Of a stretch of 64,000 bases of DNA, positions 23,031-64,000 are shown piece after piece (positions within the stretch are counted from its first letter, which is position 1; every line of letters starts with the position of its first letter). The position numbers and the translations under genes are program-made. This stretch comes from Takakia lepidozioides (Eukaryota > Plantae > Bryophyta). Under the pieces are notes generated by a model. It worked only from the letters and a program-made list of their open reading frames with translations, was not told the origin of the DNA and searched no databases. The stretch spans positions 4,960,001-5,024,000 of the forward strand of contig CM060732.1 in assembly GCA_030704615.1 (NCBI GenBank), given 5' to 3'.

Positions 23031-23034
23031 AGAT

Positions 23035-32816: not shown

Positions 32817-34795
32817 ATCCATCCGAGAGGTCCTGATTTCAAGCACCAGAGTGCATATGACCACTGAGGATTGACAGCTACAAAAAACCTGCAAGGGTAG
32901 ATGGTCATCTTGAAGAGGCAATGGCAGCACAATTGATAAAATCAGGCACCTCCACAATGATCTCCACTTCCAAAAGAGGACCCTGGGAAGAAGTTCTCAA
33001 GATTTCTTCTGGCGCTTCTGAACTTGTGAGGACACTGTATGAGGCACACTGAAAGAGGCTCTAAATTTTTGAACCATGGAGGCATTTTCACAGAGTCAGA
33101 TAATGAAGGCACCTTCATCAACACATTTCATCCTGTTTTTCCCTATTATCAGAATTGGCCCTAAATTATCGTGTTGAATTCTGCAAGTTAGCTGGTTGAG
33201 TGAACTTTGATAGTTTGAAGTGACTGACATGATACTGCCAATGTGACAACAGAAAAGTATCCAGAAATAGGTAACAGAGACGTGGAGAAGTTGTGGAATG
33301 AAAACTTTCCTGACCCCAGTTAATGGTGGGACAATCGAGGCAAAAAGGTGAATGTCTGTTGGATTACAGAGAGTAGCAGATGCAATTGAGCATATGAACT
33401 AGTGTGATAAGTTGAGTTGGGTGTTTCCTAGAACTTCAAGCTCCAGATTACTTATGATTCCCTGTGGATCAATAGCTACAAGAAACCTGCATGGGTAGAT
33501 GGTCACCTAAAGGCAGCAGCTGCAACGGCACCTTTGCTAAAATCAGGCACCTCAACCTTGACCACAACTTCTGAAAGAGGATCAAGAGAGGGAGTCCACA
33601 ATCCCTCTTCTGGCACTTTTGGGCATGTGAAGATGTTTTGTGCGGCAGGCAGTCTGACAGAGGCTCTACAGAATTTAAACCAAGGAGGCATTTCAGAACG
33701 TATGTCTGTCTCTTGTTTAAGTGCATCGAGATGGAAGGTCTGGAAGCTGGAAAGCAGATGCACACTCACATTATCCAAAGTGGGATTCCCGCCAAATGTT
33801 TTTCTACTCAACACCCTTGTCAACATGTATGTTAAGTGCAGGAGCATCATGGATGCTCACCAAGTGTTAACAGAAGGGCTCAACCATCTTTGATCACGTG
33901 GAACACGATGCTTGCAGGGTATGTACAACAAGGGCGTGGTATGGAGGCCTTGGAGACCTATGATCAAATGATGGGGGAAGGGGTGAAGCCCGACCACATC
34001 ACGTTTCTGTGCATTTGCAATGCGTGTGCAAGCCTGGCAGCTCTGGAAAATGGTGAAGATGTGCATGGCGATCAAATCTGGAATTATACCAGATGTCATT
34101 TTGAACACTACCCTGGTGGAAATGTTTGTCAAATGTGCGTGCATCGAGGATCCAAAGGGAGTGCTCGACAGTATTGGCTGAACGAGATGTGGTGTCGTGG
34201 AGTGCGATGATTGCAGGATATGCACAACAAGGGTGTTTGATGGAGGCTTTGGGGACCTATGAGCAAATGATGTGCGAAGGGGTGAAGCCCAACCACATCA
34301 CATTTTTTTTGTTTGCAATGCGTGTGCAAGCCTGGGAGCTCTGGAAAAGGGGAAAGAGGTCCATGGTGACATTGTCAAAGCTGGAATTGTACCAGATGTC
34401 ATCCTGAACCCTGCCCTGGTGGACATGGATGCAAAATGTGGGTGCATTAAGGATGCAAAGGGGTGAAGCCCAACCACATCACATTTGTTTTTGTTTGCAA
34501 TGCGTGTGCAAGCCTGGGAGCTTTGGAAAAGGGGGAAGAGGTCCATGGTGTGAAGACAATGTCTGCCACCACATTTTCGTGCGCGGGATTGGAGTTACCA
34601 CCTGCCTGGGCGCTTGTTGCTCAAAGCTGGAATTGTACCAGATGTCATCCTGAACACTGCCCTGGTGGACATGGATGCAAAATGTGGGTGCATTAAGGAT
34701 GTGAAGGGAGTTTTCAACACTATGGCTGACCGAGATGTGGTGTTGTGGAACGCGATGCTTGCAGGGTATGCACAGCAGGGGCGCGGGATGGAGGT
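32817..34795 (+). pseudogene. PDF-motif + PLS-PPR pseudogene pieces
   Basis: PDF second half at 32817-32910; WWDNRGKK exon at 33255-33347; FKLQITYDSLWINSYKKPAWVDGHL continues in frame through a linker, then (two frameshifts) into PPR motifs (33435-33870); further PLS repeats with local duplications. Confidence 0.8.
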
Positions 34796-35379
34796 CTGCT
34801 TCTGTAAGGTACTTCTTTGTGATGCAGTGCAAAGCTTGTAGATAGATGAAGGACACTTGGTCAAAGGCACAATGCAGACAACCTCTTGTGGCAATTCGTA
34901 TAGCCTAGCGCAAATCTGTGAGAGCTCCAAAAGTAGGTTGCATTCTTTCTGGCTGTTGTTCCTGAAGTACTGTCACTCGTGTTTTAGGTTGAGGCTGTAA
35001 GGCTGCACCATACTGAGGCTGCCAAAACTCTGTTGCTACTTCCGTGTGTGCGGGATGAAGGTGTACATGACCAATAGGACTGCAGGTGTTTGTCTTTGTA
35101 TTATTTTTCAAATGAGTGATGGTGGGGTGTTGTGCAGTGTGTTTACTCCTCTTCTCATATGAGCTTCACCGTCGGCTGCACTCAAGTGACGACTCTTCTC
35201 ACATCTCAGTCGTGCACGGTCTTCTCCTCAGACCCACTCCTCAACTTTATCTGCTTCCCTACAAATTGAGTGCTTAATGTTGCATTTTTGTCAACAGTGC
35301 TGCAGATCCAGGGGCAGTGAATACTGACATTTTGCGGGAAGTACCTGTTTGGCTTGCAAAGCTGAGCAATGTGCTTCTC

Positions 35380-38300: not shown

Positions 38301-40880
38301 ATCAGGCATCGCTAATCAAGGCACCTTCTTCAATACATTTCACCCAGTTTTAAATATCTGTGCGTTCGATACCACCTGAAACCGGGGTCGGTTTTTTTGG
38401 AGGAGGAAAGGAAGGACTCAAACGGCCTTGTTGTCGAGAGTATTGTTGTGCTCCACGATGATTTTGGCGATGGCAGGGAATGGCGAGTTCCACCATCGGA
38501 CAACGTCATATACAGGGCTGTTGGGGACTTCATTTGCACGCCAAATGCACCTTCTATCCTAGCGCCTTCCACGAAACAATCCGCGAATCAGAGAGTGGCT
38601 ACCTCAAAGAGAGAAGTCAGCAACGAAGTAAATCCAAAGCCGAACCCATCCATGAAGACGACAACAGGAAAGTAGCCAAAAACAGGTAACAGAGATGAGG
38701 AGAAGTTGTGGAATGAATACTTTTCTGAGCCCATTTACTGGTGACAGCCCTGGAAAAGGGCAAAGATGTGCATGGTTGCATCACCGAAGCTGGAATTGTA
38801 CCAGATGTGATTCTGAACAATACTCGTGGACATGTATGCCAAATGTGGGAGCATTGAGGATGCGGAGGGAGTGTTCAACACTATGGTTGAATGAGATGCG
38901 GTGTCGTGGAATGCGATGCTTGCAGGCTGTGCACAACAGGAGCGGGGGATGGAGGCTTTGGAGACCTATGAGCAAATGACGGGGGAAGGGGTGAAGCCTG
39001 ATCACATAACGTTTGTGTGCTTGTGCAAGCCTGGCAGCCTTGGAAAAGGGCAAAGAGGTCCATGGTTGCATCGTCAAAGCTGGAAATGTACCAAATGTGA
39101 ACTATACCCTTGTGGACATGTATGCCAAATGTGGAGGGAGTGTTCAACAATATGGCTGAATCTGCCTGTTTTGCCCTCTCAACAGACTTGGCCCTGAGAT
39201 GCATATTGAATTCTGTATGTTAGCTCGTTGGGTGTATCTGTGGTGGTTAGGAGTGACTTTGACAAGTTACTGCCGATGTGGCAGCAGGAAAGTATCCAAA
39301 AACAGATAACATAGATGAGGAGAAGGCTTGTTGGTGGATCTATGGTGGTTTTGGAGTGATTTTGACAAGTTACAGTAGGTAGGGTTGGGGTGTTTGTTGG
39401 AAGAACTTTGCGCCGTCAGTGTCAGCTGCTAGCAGCAAGGCTGAGGATGTATTCACGATATGTACACAGGCATGGATAGCTGAAGGAGCAGGGATCGAGT
39501 GTGGGTCCAGATTCATCCAAAAGGGCCGGATTTCAAGCTCCAGATTACCTATGATTCCCTGTGGAAGGATAGCTACAAGAAACAGATGGTCAACTGGAAG
39601 CCGCAGCAGCAGCGGCACAATGGAGAAAATCAGGCACTGCTAATGAAGACACCTTCTTCAACACATTTCACCCTATTTTTCCCTCTTATCAGAATCGGCC
39701 CTAAATTTCCATGTTGAATTCTGCAAGTTAGTTGGTTGAGTGAATCTTGTTTGGAGTGACTTTGACATGATACTGCCAATGTGACAACAGGAAAGTATCC
39801 AAAAACAGGTAACATAGATGAGAAAAAACTGTGGAATGAATACTTTTCTGACACCAGTCAATGGTGGGATAACCGAGGCAAAAAGGTGAATGCCTGTCAG
39901 ATTACCAGATGTGATTTTGAACACTGCCCTGGTGGACATGTATGCCAAAGTATCGAGGATGGCAAGGGAGCGTTCAACACTATGGCTAAACGAGATGTGG
40001 TGTTGTGGAGCGCGGTGCTTGCAGGGTATGCACAGCAGGGACGAGAGATGGAGGTGGGATGGAGGCTTTGGAGACCTATGCGCAATCGATGGGGGAAGGG
40101 GTGAAGCCTGATCACATCACGTTTGTGTGCGTTTGCAGTGCGTGTGCAAGCCTGGCACCCTGGAAAAGGGCAAGAGGTGCATGGTTGCATCACCAAATCT
40201 GCGAAGGGAGGGTTCGACACTATGGCCGAATGTGATGTGGTGTCGTGGAACACGATGCTTGCAGGGTATGCACAGCAGGGGCCTGGGAGGAGGCTTTGGA
40301 TACCTATGAGCAAATGATATTACATGTATGCAATTAGGGAGTATGAAGGATGCACATCAAGTGTTTAATAAAATGGGTCAACGGGATGTGGTCTCATGGA
40401 ACACCATGATTGCAGGATATGCCCAGAATGGGTGTGGTAGGCAGGCTTTGGAGATCTATGAGAAGATGCAACAGGAAGGGGTGACACCCAATAGGGCCAC
40501 GTTCCTTTGTGTTCCGAACGCCTGTGCAAGCCTAGGAGCCTTGAAAAAGGGCAAAGAGGTCCTTGCTAACATTCTCAAACCTGGAATCGCGTCATATATT
40601 AACTTGGAAACTGCCCTTGCTGACATGTACGCCAAATGCAAGAGCATGAAGGACAGACGACAAGTATTTAAGAGTATGGCTGTACGAGATGTGGTCTCAT
40701 GGAGTGCCATGATCATTGGGTACGCTCAAGAGGGTGTAGTAGTTGGGAGGCATTGAGGTTTATAAGAAAATGCAACAGGAAGGGTGTGACACGCAACAGG
40801 GTCACCTTCATCTGCATTCTCAAGGCTTGTGCCAGCCTAGGAGCCCTGGAAATGGGCAAAGAAGTCCACAGTGACATCAT
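35380..40880 (+). pseudogene. mosaic of PLS-PPR and PDF-exon fragments; the last PPR copy (40328-40880) is split by the retrotransposon
   Basis: repeated DVVSW/LVDMYAKCG/GVKPDHITF motifs; PDF exons at 38665-38725, 39500-39590 and 39790-39885; the reading EVHSDII|KAEIV resumes at 53528. Confidence 0.85.
37061..37376 (+). repeat. dispersed repeat ending in CTAG|T (Helitron-like 3' end), also at 56304-56448
   Basis: shared gatgacccaccc...gtgaaaaattgaac.tagttctcagaatt.gtcgct.gtagtgc.gagcaacgcgaagccctagt; similarity stops right after CTAGT in both copies. Confidence 0.45.
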
Positions 40881-41207
40881 TGTCAAGTTATTTTACCACT
40901 AGTGTGAAACTAGCTAGGAAATAGCTATCTTTTACATATTGACATTTGGGATTGGCCCAAGTGTCAATCCAGGGGTCAAGGCAGATTTAGGCCCTGGAGT
41001 GGTTATCTTCACGGCAAGCGCGGGAGGCTCATCTTTCTCGAGTTGAGCCTCACCGCGCCTAGCTATGGCGCCGTAGTGTGGATTCCCCATGGCGTGGGGT
41101 GCACTTGGCTTGACTTGTATTTGAGTGATGAGGTTATATATGCATGAGTTTATGCTTCAGCTTTGTGAGCTCGCATGAGCTTGTGCTTGTATTCTTCTTC
41201 TTTATCA
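40881..41207 (+). repeat. 3' half (segment A) of the 5' LTR, ending TTTATCA
   Basis: 326 bp identical to 53015-53340 except 2 substitutions. Confidence 0.92.
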
Positions 41208-41219
41208 CTCGAGAAAGAT
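41207..41219 (+). promoter_or_regulatory. self-priming primer-binding site (complementary to LTR 41031-41043)
   Basis: actcgagaaagat is the reverse complement of atctttctcgagt; there is no TGG tRNA-type PBS after the LTR. Confidence 0.7.
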
Positions 41220-42734
41220 CAGCTCGTATCTGTGAGTGCCAGATACGAGTTAGTTGTAGCACTTGTGGTTTTTTCTTGAGAATGAGAGAAACCAAGTTGT
41301 TATGCAAGGAGCACCGTGGAGCTCTTAGTTGTTAGAAGCGGAGGCGATGTGGGTTACGAGGTGGTAGACCTTGGCATTCGATCTTCAGCTTCAGAGATGA
41401 AAGCACCATGCTGCAGGTAATTCCAGAGCACCTTGATGGTTCCAGATTGTGTACATGCATGAGCAAGCACGATTGGGAAGAGGACCAGTCAAGAGCAGGT
41501 TATAGTGGCTTTGGTGGCAAAGCTGAGAACTGGACTTGGGAATGCGAGCTTTCATTGTGTGAAGGATTGCAAGACCAAGCGAAAGGGCTGATTTGCTTGG
41601 GGCAAATCAGTGCACTTTGTGGAGTATGGTGAGATTGGGTTTCAATCTCGAGCTTCAGCATTGAGAGGGCTCTTGTCATGGCAAGAGCAGGGCTGGAACA
41701 GGAGCTAAGAGGTGCGGCAAGGCCATGGAATGTGCACCTAGGGTTTCAGAGCTTGGAAGAAGAGTTCTTGCACCACAAGAGAAGTGTCTTGTGGCTGGAA
41801 ATGTAAGCCTTAGGGTTTCAGGAGCTTGGCAAAGGCTATGGAGTGCTTAGTCTTGTCATAGAGAGCATCAAGGAGCCAAGGAGCCAAGATAGGGGCTGAT
41901 ATCTCTTGTGTGAAGAGTTTGCATGTGTGAGCATGTATTCAGCTCATTGAAGCTTCCATCTTCAAGCTTGGAGGGCAAGCAAGGAAGAGGGAAGGGCTGA
42001 CTTCCCTTATGTGAGGGCAATGTATGTGTGGAGCATGCTATCAGCCTGGTGAAGGCTTGCACTTTTAGGTGTGGGAGTGCAAGAAAGGAAGGAAGGGGCT
42101 GGTTTCCCTGTAGGGCATGTAGAGCATGCTTTCAGCCTGCTGAAGCTTGTATTATCAGGTTTGTGGGTGCAAGAAATGAAGCAAAGGAGCTGATTCTCTT
42201 ATGGTGAGAGTGGGGCATGTGTGGAGCATGCCTTCAGCCCATTGAGGCTCTTGCTTCAAGCCTTAGAGAGCTAGAACGGAAGGTCTAGGGCTGGTTTCCA
42301 CTTGGAGTGAAAGAACAGCACTTGTAGGGCCTATGTGAGTTGGGGTTTCAACTTCAAGCTTGAAGGGAGCGCAACTCTTGAAGCAACAGGTGTAGAGGGC
42401 TGGAATAGGCTCTAAGACAGATGCTATGGCCAATGAGGGGAGTGCTTGAATGAGTGCTCACAAGGGCTGGGAACCAGCAGGGCTTGGTTGTTTGCCATTG
42501 AGTTTAGTGGCGTGTTGGGGGAGGCTAAGTGAGAAAAAAGGCTTGGTTTGTGGCAACCACCTCATGGCTTAGGGCTACTATGGTGGTGTGTGGGAGCCGA
42601 AAGAGCAAGGATACCTTGCTGATTTCCTCACAGCCACCATAGCTCGGTGGAAAGAAGCCTAGAGTCAAGAGACACAAACCCTAGCTTGGCGTGGCTAAAC
42701 CCCTTGGAGAAATGGCTAAACTGCCAGAGCGGCC

Positions 42735-45090
42735 ATGTGTGGGGCTGTGGTGTGTGTGGGGCTGTGTCATGTGTGCGGCTGTGGCAAGCTGTGAGGGCTG
42801 TTGTGACGGGCTGTGACAGGCTGGTGTGTGGGAGATGTGTGATGTGTGTGTGTAGTTGTGGACGGGCGGGTGTGGGTGTGACTGGCTGTGGTGTGCTGTG
42901 GGGCTGTGACAGGCTGTGCCGAGGCCTTTGAGGCTGTGACGGGGTGTGACAGGCTGTGACAGGCTTGTGCCCTGGGCCTGGGGGGCTGTGAAGGGGCCTT
43001 TGTGAGCAGGCTGTGGGGCTGTGACAGGCTGTGCCCTGTGGCCTTTGGGGCTTGTGCTGTGACGGGCTGTGTGCGGGGCTGTGACAGGCTGTGCCCTTGA
43101 GGCTGTGGGGCTGTGAGGGGCTGTGACAGGCCGTGTGCCTGATGGCCTTTGGGGAGGTGGGCTGTGAAGGGCTATGAGGGGCTGTTGAGGCTGTGCTGAG
43201 GCCTTTGGGGAGTGGCGGCTGTGTGTGGGCTGTGAGGGGGCTGTGACAGGCGGTGCCTGAGGCCTTTTGAGGATGGGGAGGGTGTTGGTGCGAGGGGTTG
43301 TGAAAGGTGGAGGCATGGCTTGGGGTGTATGTGAAGGGCTGTGAGGGGGCTGTGACAGGCCGTGCCTGAGGCTTTGAGGCTGTGAGGGGCTGGGATGTGG
43401 GCTGTGAGAGGTGGAAGGCTGTGACAGGCTGGGCTGGATTTGGGCTGGTGGGGTGTGCTGTGTGAGGGTGGTGGTGTGTGAGAGGCTGTGTGCACTTCTG
43501 TGAGGGCTGTGAAGCCGTGCCTGAGGCCTGTGGTTGCTGGCGGGGATTGTGTGTGAGGGGCCGTGACTGAGGCCTTTGGGGCTGTTGTGGGGGTTGTGAC
43601 AGGCCGTGATGAGGCCTTTGGGGCTTGTGACGGGCTGTAGGGGATGGGTGTGTTGGTGTGCAGGAGGTGTGAGGCTTGAGGAGGGGTGAGTTGAGATGTG
43701 AGGAGGGCTGTGTGTGAGGCTGTGACGGAGGCTGGGGAGGTGATGGGCTTCTGTGTATGGGCTGTGATGGGGTGTGAAGGGGTGCCATGGGCTGGGTGGC
43801 TGTGAGGTGTGAGGGCTGGTGTGTAAGGAGTGAAGTGGACTTGGGGGATTGTGTGGGATGTGGGGTGTGTGAAGGGCTGTGAGGGGCTGTGTGACAGGCC
43901 GTGCCCATGGCTTTGGGCTTTTTGTGCTGTGACGGGTGTGAGGGGCTGTGACAGGCCGTGCCTGAGGCCTTTGAGGCTGTGACGGGCTGTGAGGGCTGTG
44001 ACAGGCCGTGCCATGGCCTTTGGGGCTGTGACAGGCCGTGCATGAGGCCTTTGGGGCTGTGACGGGCTGTGAGGGGCTGTGACAGGCGTCCCATGGCTTT
44101 GAGGGCTTTGTGTGCTGTGAAGGGCTGTGAGGGGCTGTGACAGGCCGTGCCATGGCCTTTGGGCTGTGACGGCTGTGAGGGCTGTGACAGGCCGTGCCTG
44201 AGGCATGTGGGGCTGTGACGGGGCTGTGAAGCTGTGCCCATGGCCTTTGGGGCTGTGATGGGCTGTGAGGGGCTGTGACAGGCCGTGCTGAGGCCTTTGA
44301 GGATGTGTGTGTGATGGGTTGTGAGGGGCTGTGACAGGCTGGGCCCTGTGCCCTGTGGGGCTGTGACGGGCTGTGTGGGCTGTGACAGGCTGTGCCAGTG
44401 GCCTTTGGGCTGTGACGGGCTGTTGTGAGGGGCTGTGACAGGCTGTGCCCTGAGGCTGTGGGGCTGTGTGACGGGCTTGTGACGGCTGTGGTGCCATGGC
44501 TTTGGGGCTGTGATGGGCTGTGAGGGCTGTGTGACAGGACGTGCCTGAGGCATTTGGGGCTTTGTGCTGTGGCTGGTGTGACGGGCTGTGTGAGGGGCTG
44601 TGACAGGCCGTGCCTGAGGCCTGTGAGGCTGTGTGAGGGCTGTGTGAGGGGCTTGTTGTGAGGGCTGTGGTTGTGTGTGGACAGGCCGTGCTAAGGCCTT
44701 TGGGGCTGTGATGGGAGGGTGTGAGGGGATGGGGTGACAGGTTGTGGATGAGGAATTGTGAGGCGGTGTGGAGTTCTTGTGTGGTGTGTGTGTTTGTGAA
44801 GGGCGTGTGAGGGTGTGTTCGGTGGTGTTGGAGGGGCTGTGGGTATGACAGGGCCGTGGCCTGAGGCCTTTGAGGCTTGTGTGAGGGGCGTTGTGTGGAG
44901 GGGCTTTGTGTGAAAGCAGTGCCTGAGCTTTGAGGCTTTGTGGAGAGCTGTGAGGGGCTGTGACAGGTTGTGCCCCGTGGCCTGTGGGACTGTGAGGCTT
45001 GGTTTGTGTGACCAGTGAGCTTGTGGGCCTGTGCTGGTCTGTGGGGCCCGTGTTGACCTGTGGATGGCCTGTGCTGACTCGTGGAGGCAC
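42735..45090. repeat. G/T-rich degenerate tandem array (GGCTGTGA core; ~45-55 bp higher-order unit) in the retroelement 5' region
   Basis: many ggctgtga / ggctgtgacaggccgtgcc / gaggcctttgggg units; strong strand asymmetry. Confidence 0.9.
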
Positions 45091-45289
45091 TGTGGACTAA
45101 GGACTGGCTGTGGTCTGGAAGGCGAATTGTGAAGCTGTGGAGGGCGGTTTGAGGAGTATCTTCATGATATTCCCATGGTCATGCAGAGGTTCAGGTGTAG
45201 GCTATGTTAGGAACTTAGTATTCCAAACCATAAGCCGCAACAGGTTCTCTACCCGGTTACCTTGTGGAGAGGGGGTTAGGGACATGTTC

Positions 45290-46809
45290 ATGACCGGTTG
45301 AGTGTCAACACGGAGGTGCCACTAGTTGCTGGGGACAGTGCCGGTTCGAGCACTAGCGATACTAGTGGGTACACGAGACGAGGTGTGCGGTTTAGGCCAC
45401 CTTCACCTCCTGTGTCTTCACGGAAGGTTCTGATTCGGATTGTGAATCAGGAGGCTCATACGGCGGGTGCAAGTTGTTTCTTTGCCATTGTTGTGGGACA
45501 CAATGGAGGAGATGTATGGAGCTACCAAGGGGCCACGAAGGTACTCTGGGGCGGTGGGCACCATTGAGTTGGATGATTTTATCCAAGAGTTTGATAGTTG
45601 GTGTGATTTGCAGCAAATGCGCAATCCACAACTATTTACGCCGTTCATGGCATGGAAAGGGCTGTTTCAGCACCTTGAGGGGCCGCCTATGGATGATTAC
45701 CATGAGTTCAGGCGGGGGCATGAGGTTGAGATCGAGGAGTGGAGGATGTACTGGTCACCCGACTATGTCTCCATCACTAGGGGCACTAGAGCCACGAGGG
45801 CAGTGGCTACACCTGCCGCTGCACCGGCAGCTTCAGCAAGTAGCAGTGGGACTGGTGGTACAGTAGCTACGACGTCCACCCAAGCCACTACCGCACCAGC
45901 ACTAGCACCCGTGCCTGCCTTCAACCCTGTTGTGGAGTTCTTCGAAGAGTTGAGAGGGAACTACCAAGGGGTGAGGACAGAGAAGTTGCGGAGCTTGCAA
46001 GAGTTCCAACGGAAGCCGACCGAGAGCTTGAGGGAGGCTTTCACTCGCATGAGGCGCTTGATAAATGTAACCAAAGGGGTTACGGAAGCTCAGGCAGTCC
46101 AATTCTGGTATGGGATATTGGACAAGGAGCTGAGGAGAAGGGTGCGGGATGCAACTCTCCTACAAGCGGCCCAACCCACCTTAGCAAATGTGTTTTTGCT
46201 GGCAGAGCGGATAGAGCTCAACATGGTGGAGGAACGAGTGGTCATGGTGGGATTTGCTAAGGAGACACCACGGGGTAGTGGTGCTCCTAGCCAACCACTA
46301 CCTCAACGTGCTCAAGGCAACAAGGGGGCTCAGGTGAAGCTCAGGGAAGGGCAGAGAGGACCTCAGATGCAGGGGTCTCTCCCTTCATTTGCTGGCCAAC
46401 AACGGGCGGATGTGGTGTGCTGGACATGTGGAGGACCCCATGTCAAGAAGGATTGCCCAGAGGGAGGCAAAGGGCCGGCACATGCACAGCCTGCACAGTT
46501 GCAGTGTGGGCATTGTGGCAAGCACGGGCATGGAGAGGCCCAGTGTATAGTTTGCATCCTGAGTTGCGCCCAGGCCAGTTCCAAGGGAACAATGGTGGCC
46601 GGGGGCGAGGTGGAGCAGCCCAGAGAGGACGAGGTGGCCAGCCACGAGGTGCAGGCCAAGGGCAAGCTCAACGTGGCCAAGGACGCGGAGGTCAGGGTGT
46701 TGACCAAGGCATGGCCAACCGGCTTCAGCAGCTAGAGCAGAGGCTCGCTGCCATGGCTACAGCTCAGGTGGTACCGGCTCTAAGGCCGGATGGTCCACCT
46801 CCTGCCTGA
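45290..46809 (+). CDS. retrotransposon gag with two zinc knuckles (frameshifts)
   Basis: LDDFIQEFDSWCD, FQRKPTESLREAFTRM, CWTCGGPHVKKDC, CGHCGKHGHGEAQC. Confidence 0.8.
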
Positions 46810-47479
46810 GGGAGGAGAGAGATATGGGAGGCATGGGATTCATGTGTGGAGCAGCACTACCACTAGTGCAGGTGGAGTCTGCTGCAGCCGTGACTCGAGG
46901 AGCAGCACGAGTTCCTGAGCCACGAGGTGCAGAGGTGGAGTTGGATCCACAGCGTGGGGAGGCAAGCCGTCAGGCTAGGCTTCCTCAGTCATTCACATTG
47001 GCGGAGACAGTGTCGACGCCATCCATGGCACCTAGTTCTCGCCCGACTGTTACCGAGGCGGAGGTTACTATGCCATGGGGGAGAGCTACACGGGTAGCAC
47101 CACTACCTAGTGTTGCCAAGGCTACGGCAGCTAGTGTGCTGCTAGGAGCGGCCACATCTGTGTGCCAGGCTCCATTGTTCTCGGCTACCATGATTGCGAC
47201 GCCGGGGGTAAGACCAGCTGAGGTGTTCAGGCTGGCAGCTACACTCTGTGAGAGTGGGGAGGTTACTTCATCTTCTGCGGAGATAGTGGGAGGTGTAGTG
47301 CCGGAGGGATCCTCGGATTTGAGGGTCAAGACTGCCACGGCGGCGCCATGGCAAGCTGCAGCTGCCAGGTTGATGGAGCTGCCAGCTAGGCCAGCCATTG
47401 AGCGCGCCATGGTGACACCTGGAGTTGTCATGTTAGACAACCAGGATGGCATTTTCTGTTTGAGTGGACCGGCAGGCAA

Positions 47480-47800
47480 GAGGTACCGGCCACTGCGAGT
47501 CTTGTTGGACTCGGGAGCTCAGCCACTGATGCTGGGCAGAGCTGCTATTGCAGGCTTGGGCCTCACGGAGGCGGATGGATATGGAGCCTTGTCCTTTCCA
47601 GATACAGACGTCTCTGGGAGGATCGGAGCAGGCTCGGGGCATGACACGGCATGAGTTGGCTATCAGACTACGGCCGGATCACCCTACAGATGGCTCAGTG
47701 ATGCGAGCCAAGGCCATTGTGACAGACGCAGTCTCATACGATGTCCTGGTGGTGGGGGCAGTGTTGTACCCCATGGGCTTCACCCTGGATTTTTGGGAGG
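47480..47800 (+). CDS. retrotransposon aspartic protease
   Basis: RVLLDSGAQPLMLG...YDVLVVG. Confidence 0.8.
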
Positions 47801-48224
47801 AGTCAGCTTCCTATAGGCCTGCATGGCAGTCAGGGGAGGGCCGGCGTGTGCAGCTCCCTGTGACGTTCATAGGAGGAGTTGCGGTTGCCCAGCGAGGCAA
47901 GATGCCGACACTAGCAGCATTCACAGCGGCAGTGAGTTGGCCTAGAGAGTTGCTTGAGGGCAATGCTCATTCAGAGGATGTACCACCTCCGGGAGAGCAG
48001 GATGACATGTATGGTATGGCGGAGTTGCCTACCATGGTTGCTCAGACTCCATTGTGGGGCACGAGCAAGGATTTGCAGCGGGATGCTGATCGACGGGTGC
48101 AACAAGCCTGGGTGGAGGCTTTTGTACCGTCAGGAGAGGAGGAGAGTGTGGGGATTGCACCAGGACCACCTCAATGTCTCCATTGGACACCACACCTATT
48201 GTGTGGCAGTCTCCGGATGAAGGC

Positions 48225-49170
48225 ATTTGTCTTCTGGACTTGTTTGGCGGGATCAGCACCGGATTGGCTGCTGTGTTACAGGCAGGTGTACGAGTTCGGC
48301 GTTACCTGTATGTGGAGAGGGATGAGACTGCACGACGCGTTTCACTTCGCCATGTTGCTCAGTTGGTGCAGCGGTACCCTGAGTTGTTGTCGGTGTCTGC
48401 AATTCGTGGATATCAGCAGGCCTTGCCAGCAGACATTTCGTTGCTGGGGGCGCAGGATTTGGAGCGGGTTGGCTCCATTGATCTGGTAGTGGCAGGTTGG
48501 CCCTGCCAAGGGCATTCATCAGCCGGGCATGGCAATGGATTGCGAGACTCGAGGTCGGGTCTGTTTTGGGAGATGGTGCGGGTTTTGCGCCACTTGCAGC
48601 TTCATCAAGCTGTATCTCCAGCATACATCTTGGAGAATGTGCCACTGATGGGCGATTCTCGGGCCAGGGTGATGGCCAGTGTGCATCAAGTCCGGTCGTG
48701 GCTTGGGTCAGCAGTGTTGCTAGATGCAGCTACAGTGGGGTCACGGGCTCATCGTCCACGGCTATGGTGGACTAACATGATGCCACCCGCACTGCTCAAG
48801 CGTGCATTTGATGGGGTGCAGCGGCCAGCACATCTCACAGTGGATAACATTCTGGACACAGGGAGGCAGTCTCAACGTGTGAGACACGATGACCGTTCGC
48901 CTTTGCAGTGGTCAACAAGGTGGGTCAACCACGAGCAGCATTACCTACACTGCTCAGCTTCCCAGGATCGCATGCTTTCCGGGATAGTGGACCTGGCCTC
49001 CTGTGGGATGCTCAGTTGCAGCAGTTAGTGGAGCCTAATGCTGACGAGCGTGAGCGGGCAATGGGTTTTACCACTGGTACCACGGCGGTGTCGTCTCTTT
49101 CTGAGGCATCACGTCGTCAAGTGTTGGGGCAAGCAATGGATCTCAATTGCTTGACCTGGATTATCAGCTT
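48225..49170 (+). CDS. C5 cytosine DNA methyltransferase domain, DNMT3-like, inside pol
   Basis: motif I LDLFGGI (F at 48243), II YVERD, III DI, IV AGWPCQG (PC 48501-48506), V SRSGLF, VI LENV (48633), VIII AHRPRLWWTN, IX ERERAMGF, X RRQVLGQAM; one frameshift at ~48905. Confidence 0.92.
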
Positions 49171-49679
49171 GGCTCTAGCTGAGCAACGCAGAGTGCGGAA
49201 TACACTTCCCTCAATGGTCTCTCTGCCTACCGAGACGGTACAGGCAGTGAGTGGGGGCGAGCATATGAGGACCACGGGGTGCATGCATCCATGGCACACG
49301 TGGGAGGTGCTCGAGGTTCAGAGAGGGAGTTGGCAGCCAAGGCGGCTGTGATGGATGAGGTTGGGGATTCTTCTCGAGTTGAGGAGGTCCTCAAGGATGA
49401 GATGATGGGGCAGGATGATGCCTTGTCATTGACTGAGCAAGGTAGGGAGTACTGCTCAAGAGGTTGCAGCAAGCACCACGGGACGCGTCCTCTACTCTAA
49501 GCCCACTGGACTTAAGGTTGTAGTTACGGAGGACAATTGGGAGCCTGACATTGGACCCATTGCACCGGAGGAGAGAGACGACGTATACGGCGGTTCCTGA
49601 GGGCTTACAGGAATTGCTTTACCTTCAGTTTGAAGGACTTGGAGCACTGAAGGGTCAAGAGATCCGTATTGAGTTGGCC

Positions 49680-50960
49680 ACTGACACGCCAATCTTTCGG
49701 AGACCCTATAGATACAGTGACATGGAGAGGTCTTTGATTCGATGAGGACTCAAGATCTCTGGGAGGCAGGTTTGGTGGAGCTCTCTGGTGAGAGTATTCT
49801 TCAGCACAGTGATGCCAGCCAAGGGATGTCTATGGGCAATTGGACGGAGAGACTTATGTTGCGGTGATTACCGGCCTGTAAATCGTCAGACCAAGTCCGA
49901 TAAGTATGCCATGCCAACACCAGAGGAGATCTTTGATGCCATCGGGCATGCTAAGGCCTTTAGCACTTTGGATTTACGATCCGGATATCACCAGTTGCCA
50001 ATCAAGGAGGCGGACAAGCAGAAGACGGCATTCTGGGGGATCAATGAGCACGGCAAGGATTGCCTATATCAGTGGCGGTTCTTACCATTTGGGCTTAAGA
50101 ATGCTCCTGCAGAGTTTCAGAGAGTCATGGATAGGATTCTAGCAGGGGTGGACTTGCTCGGTGCTACATAGATGACATCATCATCTTTAGTGTTACGATG
50201 GAGGAGCATGAGAGACACCTTCAGGTGTATTGGAGCGCTTAAGAGCGCACGGATTGAAGTTGCATCCGGGGAAGTGCAAGTTTTTCCACAACCAGATTGA
50301 GTATCTGGGTCACATGATATATCCTGGAGGATTGGGGGTACAGCAGACTAAGGTAGAGGCCATTGCACAATTCCACGCCCCACGGATGTGAGCCGAGTTC
50401 GAGCTTTCATGGGGTTGGCAAACTATTATAGACGGTTTGTCAAGGGATTTAGTACCATTGCAAGGCTCTAACCAAGCTGACCAAGGTGGACCAGGAGTGG
50501 CAGTGGGAAGATGAGCAGGAACGAGCTTTTCAAGAGCTCAAGGCGAGGTTGACCTCGGCGCCTATCTTGAGACGACCTATCAGGGGGCGTCCCTTTCAGC
50601 TGCATACGGATCGGAGCATCTGGGGCTTGGAGCGGTGCTCACACAGGTGGATGATGAGGGAAGAGAGTTCGTAGTGGCTTACGCTAGCCGCTCGAACAAC
50701 GCTGCAGAGGCAAAGTACAGCTCATATGAGGGAGAGTGCTTAGCTGCAGTGTGGGCCGTGGCACACTTCAGGTGCTATCTATACGGCAATCTTTTCACCC
50801 TTGTCACGGATCACCAGCCACTCAAGTAGTTGATGGAGTCAGACAAGCTTACGGGGAAGCTTGCACGGTGGGCACTTATACTCCAGGAGTATGACTTTCA
50901 GGTTGTGCATCGACCGGGTTGGTCAATCGGGATGCGGATGGATTGAGTCGCAATCCATGC
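49680..50960 (+). CDS. reverse transcriptase and RNase H (frameshifted)
   Basis: CGDYRPVN, STLDLRSGYHQ, LPFGLKNAPAEFQR, YIDD (50165-50176), FQLHTD, VAYASR, EGECLAAVWAV, VTDHQPL. Confidence 0.93.
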
Positions 50961-51259
50961 ATGAGCCAGCAGGATGACACTGGAGCTCGGTGGCCATGGT
51001 GAGACGGACGAGGAGATGGTGCCGGGATGGCACGCATCTGCATTTTTGTGTATCTTGGCATCGGGAGGTCAGATTGGACCTACAACAGGGATGACTGTAG
51101 ACGGAGTGTCTGAGGACCCTGAGGCTAGTGATGAGCTAGGTGGTGCCAGAGATATACATGAGGATTCGGCTGTGTTGGACTACCTCCGCACGGGAGACAC
51201 GGCAGCCATTGTGACTGCCAGGGAGAGGGATCGGATCCTACAACGAGCCAAGAGGTTCA

Positions 51260-52380
51260 AGTGGGAGGGGATACACCTACTTCGAGTGTGGGAGGGTGGT
51301 CGGGTAGGATTGTGCCTCACCCCACACAGCGTGCACGGTTAGTGCGGCATGCCCATGAGGAGTTGGGGCATTTTGGAGTGCGACGCACTCACAGTTTACT
51401 GCAGGGGCAGTATTGGTGCGTGGTATGCATACAGAGGTGCAACAGTTTGTGGCTAGGTGCATGGTGTGTGACAGGGTGCGTGCTTCGTTTAACACCCCTA
51501 CACCACAGTTGCATCCTTTACCTATCATGGGATTGGGCTACAGATGGAGTCTTGACTTCGCAGGACCGTTGCCACTGACTATGCGCCACCACAGATATGT
51601 GTTGGTGATGGTGGAGCACTTCTCCAAGTGGATTGAGTTGGTTCCATTGCCTGACAAGGCTAGTGAGGGGCTGCGTATGCATTCTTGGATCGTGTGCTTA
51701 GCCGATTTGGTGCTCCAGCTGAGGTACTCATGGACCAAGGGAGAGAGTTCTTGGGGAGTTTCAGGCTTTGTGTGATAAAGCCTTGATAGACCACCGCACC
51801 ACTTCTCGGATCATCCTGAGGCCGATGGCTTAGCAGAGAGAGTTGTTCAGACGGTGAAGAGGGGTTTGCGCAAGTATGGCTTGCAGAAGGGACACCTAGG
51901 AGATTGGGATCTTCAGGTTTCTTGGTTAGCCATGGGCTACAGGTTCAGCAAACAAGCATCACTTGCCTCCTTCTCACTGGCCGAGAGCCGGATTTGCCTG
52001 CAGCCATTCGTAGGGACACTGCTCAAGTCCTTAACCTTGACGATCCGGACGTGTGGATACGTGCATGTGATCAGCGTGCAGAGTTGTTCAAGAAAGTCAT
52101 GCCCCATGGCTTTTGAGAACCTTGCCATTGCACAGCACCGTGATACGTTGAGGTATGCCACTATACGTGGTGGGGATATCGTCCTGGGGTTCGGAGGTTT
52201 AGCCCTGGTGACTATGTTTATTTGCAGCAGACTGCTCCTACGACTCTGGATGTTACTGTAGGGCGTGTTATTCTGAGGGTTCGAGAGGTGTTGCCCTCAG
52301 GGGTCCCGATCTAGAGGGTCGGGATGGCATGACTTGGAAGACCATGTGCGTAATTGTGCGCCATGTCACCTTCCCAATGT
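51260..52380 (+). CDS. DDE integrase (frameshifted)
   Basis: AHEELGHFG...CMVC (HHCC), WSLDFAGPL, VEHFSKW, DQG, HPEADGLAERVVQTVK. Confidence 0.9.
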
Positions 52381-52429
52381 CGATGGCAGAGTTGACCCAA
52401 ACTTGGCAGTGGTACCTGCAGGTTTGAGG

Positions 52430-52564
52430 TGCATGCTCTGTGGGTCTGCCAAAGGGGCAGCCACCATGCTGGTGTGTGATCGGTGCTCAAGGGTTGGCAT
52501 ATGGGATGCTTGACACCACCTCTTGAGAAGGTTCCTGACGGAGATTGGTTTGTGTCCACACTGC
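52430..52564 (+). CDS. PHD finger at the integrase C-terminus
   Basis: CMLC...MLVCDRC..GWHMGCLTPPL.KVPDGDW.CPHC (C4HC3), read across two 1-nt indels. Confidence 0.85.
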
Positions 52565-52829
52565 TTGGGATAGTGGCAGTGGACATGACTGGAGGCAGCT
52601 AATAACATGGAGGCCAAGCTCATAGGAGTCAATACATGAGATCCCAAGCTCAAGTTCACAGGTTGCAAGATGGCGACTAACGATGGGGCAACTCTTGCAC
52701 CCGGCCTCTTGATCTATCGAGTTTGAGTGTAGTAGGGATAGTGGTGGAGGACTTAGTGAGGCTATGGTCACTATCACATCTTGTGGCTACCTGGACTTAG
52801 AGGGACCTAAGCACCAGCTAGGGGGCGAT

Positions 52830-53340
52830 TGTGTGGACTAGTGTGCTGCCATAGTGGGCAGCGTAGTGGCAGCCTGTGACTGACTAGTTGTAGCCTAGTG
52901 GTTGGACTAGTGCTGGACTAGTGGTAGTAGTGGTATACTAGTGTGTGGTGTGCACATGTGTTGTGTGGTTTTGGACAGCGATGTAGTTGTGTAGCGATAT
53001 GTATGCGCACCAGCTGTCAAGTTATTTTACCACTGGTGTGAAACTAGCTAGGAAATAGCTATCTTTTACATATTGACATTTGGGATTGGCCCAAGTGTCA
53101 ATCCAGGGGTCAAGGCAGATTTAGGCCCTGGAGTGGTTATCTTCACGGCAAGCGCGGGAGGCTCATCTTTCTCGAGTTGAGCCTCACCGCGCCTAGCTAT
53201 GGCGCCGTAGTGTGGATTCCCCATGGCGTGGGGTGCACTTGGCTTGACTTGTATTTGAGTGATGAGGTTATATATGCATGAGTTTATGCTTCAGCTTTGT
53301 GAGCTCGCATGAGCTCGTGCTTGTATTCTTCTTCTTTATC
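52830..53340 (+). repeat. complete 3' LTR (B+A, 511 bp) preceded by PPT AGGGGGCG
   Basis: starts TGTGTGG after tagggggcgat; ends TTTATC. Confidence 0.88.
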
Positions 53341-53343
53341 TAT

Positions 53344-53527
53344 TGTGTGGACTAGTGACTGCCATAGTGGGCAGCGTAGTGGCAGCCTAGTGACTGACTA
53401 GTTGTAGCCTAGTGGTTGGACTAGTGGCTGGACTAGTGGTAGACTAGTGGTATACTAGTGTGTGGTGTGCACATGTGTTGTGTGGTTTTGGACAGCGATG
53501 TAGTTGTGTAGCGATATGTATGCGCAC
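53344..53527 (+). repeat. extra 5' half (segment B) of the LTR
   Basis: repeat of 52830-53010 with a few small indels. Confidence 0.9.
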
Positions 53528-54634
53528 GACATCATCAAAGCTGAGATTGTGTCAGATATAACTTTGGAGAATACACTTGTCGACATGTATGCCAAATGTG
53601 GGAACATGAAGGATGTGCATCAAGTGTTTGACAAGATGACTAAACGAGACATGGTCTCATGGAGTGCCATGATCGCAAGATACATACAGGATGGGTCTAG
53701 TAGGGAGGCTTTCAAGATCTATGAGCAGATGGAACTTGAAGGGGTGATGCCCAACCATGTCACATTTATTTGCATTCTCAATGCGTGTGCCAGCCTTGGA
53801 GCCTTGGGAAAGGGTAAAGAAGTCCATGCTGACATCTTGAAAGCTGAAATTACGTCATATGTAAATCTGGAGACTGCACTTGTAGACATGTAAGCCAAAT
53901 GTGGGAGCTTAGAGGATGCGCGTGAAGTGTTTGACAGTATGGCTAAACAAGATGTGGTCTCATGGAATGCGCTGATCATAGGATATGCTCAGCACGGGTG
54001 TGGTAGGGAGGCCTTGCTCCTATTGGAACAAATGCAACAGGAAGGCGTGAAGCCTAATAGTAGTACCTTCATATCTGTCTTTTCAGCAAGCAGCCATGGG
54101 GGTCTAGTGGATGAAAGCCATCAGTGCTTTGATTCCTTGAGACATGATCATGGTCTCACTGCTACAGTGGAGCATTTTAGCTGCATGGTGGACCTTCTTG
54201 GCCGTGCAGGGCGATTGTATAAAGCAGAGGACTTAATTAACACGTGCCAATCATGCCAGATGTTGGGGTATGGATGGCCTTGCTTGGTGCCTGCAGAGTT
54301 TGGAGATGTGGAGATAGCAGAACGTGTAGCAAAGAGCATTCTCAAGATTGATCTGGAGCACTCCGCGGCTTATGCGCTGCTATCAAACATTTATGTTGCG
54401 GCTGGCAGGTGGGATGACAAAGCAAAGGTGAGAAAAATGATGAAGGACAAGGGTATCAGAAAGGAGCCAGGGTGCAGCTGCATTGAGGTTGACAACAGGG
54501 TGCATACTTTTGTTGTAGGAGACAAATTGCATCCACAAATTCAGGAAATTCATGCTGAGCTGCAGAGATTGTCTGGACTGATGAAGGGGGTGGGATATAT
54601 TCCTGACACGCGCTTTGTGTTACATGACGTTTAG
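53528..54634 (+). pseudogene. 3' part of the PLS-PPR-E/E+ gene split by the retroelement; truncated in the DYW domain
   Basis: DIIKAEIVSDITLENTLVDMYAKCG..., HFSCMVDLLGRAGRL, YALLSNIY, KEPGCSCIEV, GYIPDTRFVLHDV*; in-frame TAA at 53891. Confidence 0.9.
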
Positions 54635-54644
54635 GAGGACATGA

Positions 54645-55709
54645 TGTCAAATGTGGGTGCATCGAGGATGCAAATGGAGTGTTTGACAGTATGGCTGAAC
54701 GTGATGTGGTGTCGTGGAGTGTGATGATTGCAAGATATACACAACAAGGGTGCAGGATGGAGGCTTTGGAGACCTATGAGCAAATGATGTGCGAAGGGGT
54801 GAAAACCAACCACATCACGTTTGTGTCAATGCTTGTGCAAGCCTGGTAGCCCTGGAAAATGGCAAAGGATGCATGGTGACATCATCAAAGCTGGAATTGT
54901 ACCAAATGTCATTCTGAACACTGCCCTGGTGGACATGTATGCGAAATGTGGGTGCATTGAGGATGCACAGGGAGTATTTGACAATGTGGTTGGCTTGAAG
55001 CCGGACAGTATCACCTTTATATATTTTTTCTCTGCATGCAGCCACACTGGCCTACTGAATGAAGGAAGATGCTACTTCGATTCCCTGAGTCAAGATCATG
55101 GTGCACCCCGCCAGTAAAGCACTTTGGCTATGGTGGACCTTCTGGACGTGCGGGACAACTACATGAGGCAGTGGACCTGATTAATAAAATGCCAATCAAT
55201 CCAGATGTTGTGGTGTGGAAGGCCTTGCTTGGTGCCTGCAGAATCCATGGCAATGTGGAGATGGCTGAATGTGTGGTAACATCTATCCTCAAGTGGGATG
55301 AACAGGATGCCACGACTTATGTGTTGCTATATCAAACATCTATACTGCAGCTGGCAAGTGGGATGATACTGCAAAGGTGAGAAGAATGATGAAGGTCAGA
55401 GGGGTTAGAAAGGAGCCAGATGACAAGTTGCATCCCAGAATTAAGGAAATCCATGCTGAGCTGAGAAGAGGAGGCGGGGTATGTGCCTGACACACGCTTT
55501 TTATTGCATGATGTGGAGGAAGCTGAGAAGCTGGCCATTGGTTTTGGGCTGATCAGCACGACTCATCAAGAATCTTCGAGTGTGTGGAGACTGCCACACC
55601 TCCACCAAATTCATCTCAAAGATTGTTGGCCGAGCAATTGTTGTATGGGACGCTAACTACTTTCCACCACTTTGAAGATGGGATTTGTTCTTGTGGTGCT
55701 TACTGGTGA
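54645..55709 (+). pseudogene. PLS-PPR-E-DYW pseudogene with DYW C-terminus (ends CSCGAYW*)
   Basis: [49 protein letters not shown]; HSE zinc motif deleted; very similar to 31450-32345. Confidence 0.9.
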
Positions 55710-61819: not shown

Positions 61820-63560
61820 TTTTTTTATTTTTTATTTTTTTTAAAGAAAGGGGCTGATACTCTGCAAAAACTTTATTGGAGCGTCAAAACGAGCACAGAG
61901 AGGAGGAAAAAATAACCTCCTTAGGGGCCGTAAAGGCGTGTCACATGGGGAATCACCCAGCACTGATAGGAAGTAGGGGGGAGTTGTAGAATACTACTGA
62001 CCAAAAACCTTGGTTGGGGGGAGAGGGGGGATTGCAACGAGGCCTAACCACGAGTAAGGCCACCTAAAACGAAAAATCAGCCTAAGTATTTGGTTGTTTA
62101 AGCAGCTGCGGGGGGGGGGATAGTGATTCTATCACAAAACCAGCGAAGATGACTAGCCACCAAAGTTCAGCTGGAGCTTCGACTTTGCCGCACGCAGACT
62201 GAGATGTTTCCAGTTGACATCGGGCTCTTCCGACTCAGCAGGGGATTTGCCATTCCCTGGGGATGGCATCATGCCAAGTGATTCGCGAGTCCGAGATCCT
62301 GGTGCAGAGGATGCCGCCTTTTGCCCAGGAGAGGTCGAAGTCCGAGAATAATTGATTACACCTCCTGTCACTGCACCTGCCTGCAGCTGTTTGCAAAGAC
62401 ACCCAAGCCTTGCGCCCCTCAGTCATCAGATCAGCAAATAGTTTGTAAAGCACTAATCTGATGCTGGGGCTCTTCCCTTGAAATATCAGACTACATCTTG
62501 CCTTCCATAAAGACCAAAGGGTGTGGCCCCTCAAGCATCCCCATACTGGGCAGTTATTCTAGATGGAGCCACTGCGTAGATTAAGCAGAATAATGTGTGC
62601 ATCTCGTGGGGACACAACCTGCCACTGCGCATAGAATGCGGTCACCAGATGCCAGGTTCTAGCAGCTAGATTGCAGTTTGTGAAGGCATGCTCGATAATC
62701 TCACTTTGGTTGCAATTACAAACCACACAGGCAGGGTCAGCATCTGGAAGGCTGGCAGCCATTGGAAAAATTATGTTCGCCAACTTCCGTAAGAAAGCAC
62801 TGATTTTGGAGGAGCGGTGTTTGGCCCATATGTCCTTCCAAATTGAGTTCCATGCAGGGGGCTGCAAATCGAGGTTCCATTTATCTACAAAATTCGCCTT
62901 CCCGAGAAGCAACCTATACCCCGTTTTCACTGTGTAGCCCAGTAGTGGCGTGTTTTTGTCATCTTTCCATGACCAATCCCCCGGGTCCATCTGTAATCTA
63001 GAGAGCGGAAAGCATATAAACCAAATGAATTTGGATTTTCTAGCCCAACATATCTCTCCGCCCTGAGGAGGTGTTGGCACTGTGGACCCTGATAGAGTAT
63101 CGAAGACTCTAATTCTAATGGTGCAGCTCCCCTGTTCCGATTAGCACTAATCTCCCTGTGCCGGTTGCTTGGAAAAGCAGTCCGTTCCAATGAGTGCTTG
63201 TAGACGAAATTGCTAGGAGGGCCACTTGCCTGCCTCCTACCGAGCATCCGAACCAGACAGGCAAGCCATTACCAGTACAGGGTCCCCCTAGCAGGAGGGG
63301 CTGCACAAATTCTTATGATATCCCATCCGCTCCTGCTGGAGTTTGTGGATAAGAGGGAGGATAACAAGGGGAGGTCTAGAAACTGATTTTTTCCCAGATA
63401 TTGGCAATGTGTGAAAGCCCTTTTGTCCCCTAAGTTGCCCACTTTTTATGGAGGGTAGTCAGGGCTTCATTTTGCAAGTTGGGGTTCCCGAACAAGGGTT
63501 GGCGAATCGCCTCTTCAAAGCAGGTAGGTGCCCTTTGAGTAAGATGGGGCCTCATCACTT
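61820..63560 (-). mobile_element. LINE (L1-clade-like) 3' part: ORF2 C-terminal zinc finger, 3' UTR and poly(A)
   Basis: WKDIW...CVVCNCNQSEIIEHAFTNC (zf-RVT), WSLWKARCSLIFQGK; T-rich tract at 61820-61842 is the minus-strand poly(A). Confidence 0.8.
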
Positions 63561-63562
63561 TG

Positions 63563-64000
63563 TAATGCACCAGCAACCTTTCAGAGAATGATAAGTGAAT
63601 CTTTTCATGAGTATCTAGATGATTTCATGCAGGTGTTCTTGGATGATTTTAGTGTGTACAGCTCTAAGAATGAGCATTTGCATAAATTAGAGTTATGTTT
63701 GGCCAAATGCAGGATGAGAGGTCTGGGCCTGAATCGAGAGAAGTGTACTTTCTGTGTGAACTCAGGGGTGCTTTTGGGACACATTGTGTGTAAGAGGGGA
63801 CTTCTTGTGGATCCCAGAAAAATAGAGGCCATTAAAGCCTCTCCACCACCAGTAAATGTTAAGAGTCTAACGAGATTTCTTGGACAAACCAGTTATTACA
63901 GAAGATTTGTCAGACGGTATGCACAGATAGCAGCACCACTGAGCAAGCTTCTGAAGAAAGATGCAGTGTTTGCATGGACAGCTGAATGTCAACAGGCTTT
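63563..64000 (+). mobile_element. Ty3/gypsy RT fragment running off the window end
   Basis: NAPATFQRM...FMQVFLDDFSVY...LNREKC...LLGHIV...FLGQTSYYRRFV. Confidence 0.92.

Follow-up and report, generated by a model that had tools for sequence, protein, structure and literature searches.

A Gypsy-type element of Takakia lepidozioides with a PHD finger behind its integrase and a Dnmt3-like methyltransferase

The window, a stretch of 64,000 nucleotides of Takakia lepidozioides DNA, contains a 12.65-kb Gypsy-type element (40881..53531; this and all features below lie on the forward strand unless marked otherwise) whose integrase is followed by a C4HC3 PHD finger (52430..52564) and which also encodes a Dnmt3-like C5 cytosine methyltransferase (DNMT). 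The finger, first noticed in an initial annotation of the sequence, is confirmed in the window. In close relatives of the element the methyltransferase and the finger lie in separate open reading frames, so that, as far as sequence comparison goes, they are likely to work apart rather than as a reader-writer unit. The initial interpretation, a chromatin reader and writer in one polyprotein, is partly supported overall.

Structure and insertion of the window element

The domain order is gag-PR-DNMT followed by RT-RH-INT-PHD, and the order gag, protease, reverse transcriptase, RNase H and integrase, together with a DDE integrase, places the element in Ty3/Gypsy. The first part comprises a gag with CCHC knuckles (45503..46760; Retrotrans_gag below cut-off, 58% to Marchantia P0056), an aspartic protease of approximate limits (47490..47800; weak Asp_protease_2 match) and the methyltransferase (48219..49200; DNA_methylase, E 2.6e-13), whose motifs lie at 48237, 48495 (PC), 48633 (ENV), 48750 and 49130. 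Beyond the ORF1/ORF2 junction (49430..49500) follow reverse transcriptase (49850..50330; YIDD at 50165-50176), RNase H (50510..50900), an integrase with an H2C2 zinc domain and a D-D-E core (51300..52000; D51554, D51733, E51836), and the integrase C-terminal region with a linker (52000..52429), for which a low-confidence model gives a helix and a beta-rich domain (dN/dS 0.04 in relatives). The AlphaFold model of this tail is weak (mean pLDDT 56); Foldseek searches with it returned PHD-finger matches that add little, and Tudor-PHD matches that were unusable, with an rmsd of 13.

All eight zinc ligands of the finger are present downstream of the D-D-E core (codons at C52430, C52439, C52475, C52484, H52498, C52507, C52553 and C52562), as is the conserved tryptophan (W52546), and a stop at 52,571 makes the finger the extreme end of the Pol frame. 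Its position at the integrase C-terminus bears out the likeness to the chromodomain of chromoviruses that had been pointed out. Two frame breaks, near 52,490 and 52,549, split the finger into three pieces, and for each of them contigs free of the break were found in three of four sequencing runs (15/11/1/0 and 21/24/1/0 contigs). A single instance of the split pattern exists in the window, and none of 200 block shuffles produced it. With the unbroken first half and the linker as query, 52 of 81 candidates proved to be relatives (67-87% identity), those named coming from Marchantia, Sphagnum and Calypogeia; PF00628 was found in 44 of the 52, rve as well in 5, and the full ligand spacing in 31. 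The ligands and the tryptophan before Cys7 are invariant in 27 aligned relatives, a set picked for a full finger. Against a PF00628 cut-off of 24, the unbroken half in the window scores 14.3 by itself and intact relatives score 39-44 bits. An Rfam search gave no match.

The coding region of the window copy contains 30 frame breaks: 25, with no stops, against its closest ORF2 relative, P0139 (78% over 1,003 codons), and five, again with no stops, against Marchantia ORF1, counts that may miss short double shifts, which the aligner can conceal. Both YIDD and D-D-E are preserved. Only 12 of the 25 ORF2 breaks lie near runs of three, against a background of 34%. Since the A repeats differ at 2 of 326 nt without gaps and no stops have accumulated, the copy appears young, and most of its frame breaks are likely to be assembly errors. 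Two runs of one sample each yielded over 100,000 contigs that map to the element, which indicates that the family is abundant. The stretch 49524-52553 shares about 71% nucleotide identity over 3 kb with the related loci L017 and L049, and Marchantia and metagenome loci share 70-85% protein identity; such high identity across loci could reflect either strong conservation or horizontal transfer among bryophytes.

The element begins and ends with TGTC...GACA, as related loci do, and its repeats are split. Terminal repeat A1 (40881..41206) matches A2 (53015..53340) at 99.4%, with 2 mismatches and no gaps over 326 nt; repeat B1, with the internal B|A junction (52828..53014), matches terminal repeat B2 (53342..53531) at 96.8%, with one mismatch and four gaps over 187 nt. 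The layout is thus A-coding-B-A-B. A purine-rich, PPT-like tract common to L017, L068 and L069 stands before B1 (52816..52829). A 4-bp duplication, TCAT, flanks the whole (40877..40880 and 53532..53535) within an interrupted PPR coding stretch, of which 40700..40880 remains on the left and 53532..54634, with PPR, E and E+ motifs and an in-frame stop at 53891, on the right. A joint skipping the element was seen in all four runs, and PPR paralogs may be its source. The 5' region is 4.2 kb long, against only about 1.5 kb in L017; within it a GGCTGTGA-rich tandem array (42750..45000) yields long low-complexity antisense frames, and there is no ORF of 100 aa in 41.2-42.6 kb. After repeat A1, at 41208-41250, no tRNA-type primer site was seen, a 10-bp hairpin that is not common to L017 standing there instead.

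The related loci described here and below are the best 80 of 546, and 64 of these 80 match the L017 repeats. Two complete direct-repeat LTRs, as expected of Ty3/Gypsy, were not found; the nine loci with both ends have A-coding-B-A-B (four loci) or a short A-coding-B (five loci), and the exact 4-bp duplication is present in eight of the nine, corresponding to seven of eight distinct insertions. The short form, too, is flanked by duplications. At each of the 23 internal B|A junctions, two nucleotides separate a tetramer resembling the element's end from one resembling its start, and L068 and L069, of a more distant family, have the same junction. The TG...CA ends, the duplication and the layout shared with related loci indicate that the window copy was inserted by integrase, removing a doubt raised in the initial annotation. 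Capture of a two-LTR circle by repair, with an 8-bp duplication, was rejected because ends in GACA leave 4 bp and related loci share the layout; a tyrosine-recombinase element of the DIRS/Ngaro kind was rejected because 15 pieces and the intact relatives gave no recombinase match, 41.2-42.6 kb contains no ORF of 100 aa and a 4-bp duplication is present. The DDE integrase would cut the regenerated B|A (CA-NN-TG) junction in a circular intermediate. How an element that codes for a DDE integrase replicates with split repeats, such a CA-NN-TG junction and 4-bp duplications, as seen here and in L017, L033, L072, L068 and L069, may be its most unusual feature. Around 36 distinct sites the flanking sequence is AT-rich (GC 0.32) and the duplications vary; these copies are old and have been under selection, so they provide no test of targeting.

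Finger, integrase and methyltransferase in related elements

The fusion of finger and integrase proposed at the outset holds in intact copies. RT, RH, INT and PHD occupy one open frame of 1,035-1,056 aa in L068, L069, P0139 and P0166, where the finger scores 39-41 bits (cut-off 24), and no Chromo domain matched these four ORF2 proteins at E 0.01. The proposal had been made to depend on two points, a stop codon before the finger in the consensus and loss of the zinc ligands among copies, and neither was found. Among 72 pairings of integrase core and finger from the best 80 loci, 51 are in frame and five fully open; no fixed stop separates the two. Stops are scattered, no codon having more than 12, and of the 20 that recur 18 coincide with Gln, Arg or Trp codons of P0139, the pattern expected of decay. 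The eight ligands are kept, in order, in 67, 72, 75, 75, 72, 73, 70 and 60 of 76 loci, counts biased by locus search patterns that included the His and one Cys. Between L068 and L069, dN/dS is about 0.05 for the finger (0.070/1.35), 0.04 for RT (0.056/1.59), 0.02 for the integrase core (0.019/0.79) and 0.14 for DNMT (0.17/1.24), values that come from one pair, 45 PHD codons and a dS near saturation; a comparison with L070 gives 0.06. Judged by this one pair, the finger is under purifying selection. From the catalytic Glu to the first Cys of the finger there are 203-204 aa in all five proteins measured, bryophyte-type and algal-type.

The arrangement upstream of RT is different. An in-frame stop lies 16 codons before the ORF2 anchor and is followed by CAA in 27 of the 36 loci that cover the ORF2 start (among the best 80 of 546), and lies 23 codons before it in two more, L068 and L069; of the remaining seven, one lacks the stop and the others are shifted or rearranged. 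The 27 commonest belong to one family and are not independent. Counting the motif in 30 loci (29 distinct) gave 21 TAG, 8 TAA and 1 GAG, the downstream letters having been part of the search pattern. The intact L068 consists of a gag-PR-DNMT frame of 1,369 aa, a single TAG and an RT-RH-INT-PHD frame of 1,047 aa with no Met in its first 116 codons. Its stop context, TAG-CAG-TTA (L068:5083-5091), and that of L069, TAG-CAA-TCA (L069:4661-4669), fit UAG-CAR-YYA, the tobamovirus readthrough motif (PMC3159437). The 27 commonest loci have CAA-CCY, short of the full motif, and in 26 of them an ATG lies in frame two codons on, so that re-initiation is possible there. The stop is likely to be leaky, allowing readthrough, and it would then sit behind the methyltransferase instead of behind gag. 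In Marchantia and Calypogeia, ORF1 proteins extend 97-99 residues past the last DNMT motif. Gene models that run DNMT into RT (P0061, P0064, P0072 and P0084) skip the junction at four different places and were set aside as model artefacts.

In the window copy itself the ORF1 frame is open to 49,497, with a stop at 49,498, and the ORF2 frame opens at 49,433; with one break every 130-250 nt the junction is unreadable. The window family lies among stop-bearing relatives, which makes a stop or some other recoding at its junction likely. Searching proteins with the window junction piece gave no match among 64 candidates, and no relative was found among viral contigs. In an intact relative the best PDB matches of the DNMT are DNMT3A/3B/3C. 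A coupling like that of animal DNMT3, where a PHD-like ADD domain accompanies the enzyme, had been invoked for the element but finds no counterpart in ORF1: a domain scan of L068 ORF1 and P0056 showed neither ADD nor PWWP, and the CxxC motifs of P0056 and P0075 are gag knuckles only. A predicted complex of DNMT with the integrase tail and finger scored 0.00, giving no verdict.

Beyond the bryophyte-type elements, a DNMT search of cluster representatives gave 97 matches under 1e-30. Among 24 long DNMT proteins scanned (at least 1,400 aa; 36 listed), 17 have integrase and PHD, four have integrase without PHD and end within 144 aa of rve, and three have no integrase. DNMT stands directly before INT-PHD in one chain in 50 of 122 proteins of at least 900 aa (cluster members included), with RT and RH in front in 33 of these 50 algal-type chains; one such chain is the pol of Scenedesmus sp. 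PABB004. The description of reader and writer in one polyprotein therefore suits algal-type elements better than the window element, in whose own clade the stop of 29 of 36 loci divides them. In P0297 (Closterium, a gene model) and P0320 a single frame holds DNMT-RT-RH-INT and closes with no finger, so that DNMT does not need one. An integrase tree of 31 rows splits elements with DNMT before RT from those with DNMT before INT (99/99), as do an RT tree and a quick tree. More than one root fits, and the data are compatible with PHD bearers forming a single clade (p-AU 0.35), so that the finger may have been either lost or gained. Algal-type elements such as P0087, P0089-P0091 and P0179, among others, have 150-360 or more residues after the finger; in two of the algal-type elements a G-patch lies between DNMT and integrase.

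Histone reading and competing explanations

PHD fingers that read K4me3 form an aromatic cage of which an invariant Trp is part; those that read K4me0, among which BHC80, CHD4 and DPF3 are listed, have no cage, a hydrophobic residue before Cys3 and an acidic cluster before Cys1 (PMC3241642). The best PDB sequence matches of a Marchantia relative of the finger are PHF12, CHD4, BHC80, ATXR5, KDM5B (KDM5), KMT2D and DPF3. The cage Trp would stand two residues before the His ligand, where 75 of 76 loci (best 80 of 546) have Gly and none of the 50 algal-type chains has Trp; neither set thus shows the cage Trp of ING or BPTF, and a role as an H3K4me3 reader is unlikely. Leu stands two residues before Cys3 in 73 of 76 of the same loci, giving the combination of no cage and a hydrophobic residue seen in H3K4me0 readers of the BHC80, AIRE and CHD4 type. 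Asp follows Cys3 in 73 of 76 of these loci and in 47 of 50 algal-type chains, and the Pro-x-Gly-x-Trp stretch is conserved in relatives; in solved complexes these elements hold H3 Arg2 and Ala1. Lacking the H3K4me3 cage, the finger is likely to bind the unmodified H3 tail. The acidic cluster before Cys1 is missing in the window and in most bryophyte-type loci (Gly-Leu-Arg; Asp at -3 in 11 of 76), so K4 sensing by the bryophyte-type finger may be weak; an acid lies within five residues of Cys1 in 38 of 50 algal-type chains.

The account towards which we lean, and which seems to us somewhat probable on these comparisons, is that INT-PHD tethers the element to nucleosomes with unmodified H3 while a separate, Gag-linked DNMT methylates the element's own new DNA copy. 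In such a high-copy element the integrase-borne finger would dock the integration complex on nucleosomes whose H3 tail is unmodified, by binding H3 Ala1-Arg2, and K4 methylation, in blocking this, would keep insertions off H3K4me3 promoters much as the chromodomain steers chromoviruses. ORF2, made by occasional readthrough of the stop, would supply little INT-PHD to a particle in which DNMT is abundant, and protease cleavage would separate the two. The Dnmt3-like enzyme made with Gag would methylate the new copy, and both modules would help that copy fit host chromatin without any ADD-like coupling. Methylation of cDNA has been proposed for a DIRS-borne Dnmt3 (PMC5890265), a proposal that a Gag-level DNMT would fit. 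Several points speak against this account besides the missing acidic cluster and the incomplete readthrough context of the commonest loci: the window copy itself sits in a PPR coding stretch; its ORF1 frame runs without a stop until 49,498; and the 50 algal-type chains with DNMT next to INT-PHD would fit a closer coupling.

In such a coupling, modelled on ADD-bearing animal DNMT3, the finger would take the complex to chromatin of a given histone state, and DNMT, belonging to the same protein or complex, would methylate the insertion site; those 50 chains (cluster members included) speak for it. DNMT keeps company with INT-PHD across a wide clade (17 of 24 long DNMT proteins, the four without a finger ending within 144 aa of rve), the enzyme is Dnmt3-like and the finger resembles K4me0 readers. 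Yet we consider the coupling quite unlikely for the window element, since in its own clade a stop lies between the modules, about 1,000 residues of RT-RH-INT separate them, two relatives keep DNMT without PHD, and the Gypsy-7a_cRei element has a finger and no DNMT among its listed domains (bioRxiv 2022.06.16.496473).

The finger could also be a structural or protein-binding part of integrase, serving in folding, multimer contact or the binding of DNA or a host factor, with no histone reading. Its fixed spacing to the integrase core and the absence of both aromatic cage and acidic cluster in the bryophyte-type finger would agree with this, but relatives with a complete C-terminus and no finger indicate that integrase does not need it, and the Asp after Cys3 and Pro-x-Gly-x-Trp, the H3 Arg2/Ala1 contacts of solved complexes, are conserved. 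Some PHD fingers do bind non-histone proteins (PMC3241642); on the whole this explanation is unlikely. That the finger is a mere passenger, a captured host fragment or a chance arrangement of Cys and His that does nothing for the element, might be read from its two breaks in the window and from the decay of most related loci (five of 72 core-PHD pairings fully open). This is very improbable and largely refuted by the dN/dS of the finger, by the shuffles, none of which reproduced the split pattern, by the same position in algal-type and bryophyte-type elements, and by core-to-finger stops that are scattered, the recurrent ones almost always on Gln, Arg or Trp codons.

More speculatively, and in our judgement improbably, the elements could form an old green-lineage Gypsy clade, from chlorophytes to bryophytes, with an epigenetic kit of its own: an H3K4me0-sensing integrase would pick silent chromatin, a Gag-level Dnmt3-like enzyme produced by way of a leaky stop would methylate the new copy and its flanks, and the DDE integrase would cut the regenerated CA-NN-TG junction of the DIRS-like split repeats. 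If this were true, high copy number would shape the host methylome.

Known reader- and methyltransferase-bearing elements

The closest known element is KnitGypsy-Dnmt3 of Klebsormidium nitens (de Mendoza 2018, PMC5890265), which by its published description likewise has Gypsy domains, a Dnmt3-like DNMT and DIRS-like A-coding-B-A-B repeats. It differs in that the text of that report contains no occurrence of PHD (Fig. 4c may show one), in that its DNMT is said to share an ORF with RT and RNase H, as against the stop between them in the window's relatives, and in that no land-plant members are reported there. DNMT lies in the RT frame in P0320 and P0297 and is absent from it in 29 of 36 related loci, the window copy being unreadable. 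No match named Klebsormidium occurred among the relatives looked up.

REM1 of Chlamydomonas reinhardtii is, like Gypsy-7a_cRei of the same species, reported to be a PHD-bearing Gypsy element. Gypsy-7a_cRei has a PHD finger in its Gypsy Gag-Pol, and its insertions are intergenic 2.6 times above chance, for which targeting has been proposed; unlike the present element it is listed with no DNMT and an ordinary LTR pair, and the legend gives its PHD before INT (bioRxiv 2022.06.16.496473). EpiLTRs of Cymbomonas and Euglena are single LTR elements that likewise carry both a histone reader and a cytosine methyltransferase, but by their description the reader is a chromodomain rather than a PHD finger, the DNMT is sister to DNMT4, and an adenine methyltransferase is present too; they are stated to be distinct from streptophyte Gypsy-DNMT3 (bioRxiv 2026.05.21.726589). 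Chromoviruses (MAGGY, Tcn1, Chlamyvir) carry a reader at the integrase C-terminus, the MAGGY chromodomain targeting H3K9me, whereas the window element has no chromodomain and the predicted ligand of its finger is the H3 N-terminus. The ADD-catalytic module of animal DNMT3A resembles the element in joining a Dnmt3-like catalytic domain to a PHD-type finger of the K4me0-reader kind, but the element bears its finger on integrase, which close relatives encode in a separate ORF, and no ADD or PWWP lies beside the catalytic domain.

PHD fingers are described as common retrotransposon accessories (PMC8557442, PMC6673714, bioRxiv 2021.11.30.470311), and the REXdb paper text has no occurrence of PHD, methyltransferase or Marchantia. 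PHD-bearing Gypsy elements and elements with DNMT plus a reader have thus each been published; we found no paper on a Gypsy element with Dnmt3 and integrase-PHD, on bryophyte members or on the stop, in a search outside which lay subscription papers, theses and Repbase (the supplements of bioRxiv 2021.11.30.470311 may list such fusions). The role of transposon-borne DNMTs is called open in the discussion of PMC5890265. That retrotransposon PHD fingers steer insertion is a long-standing proposal, and this family joins PHD and DNMT. Its many copies in Marchantia, for which chromatin maps exist, together with natural variants that have or lack the finger and that have or lack the stop, make both questions testable from existing insertions. 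Across Marchantia, Sphagnum and Calypogeia, many gene models named "PHD-type domain" and "DNA (cytosine-5)-methyltransferase" represent fragments of such elements.

The remainder of the window holds a PPR gene-fragment array (28700-40880 and 53532-55700; PLS, E/E+ and a DYW-like end) with many breaks. A second Gypsy RT (21632-22447, reverse strand) lies beside a gag (22336-23640, forward strand), as inverted or nested pieces. A DUF7869 frame and other long frames without Pfam matches (14318-15907, reverse strand; 3107-4955, forward strand; 62562-63998) are likely transposon-derived, and zf-RVT and RT pieces lie at the right end of the window.
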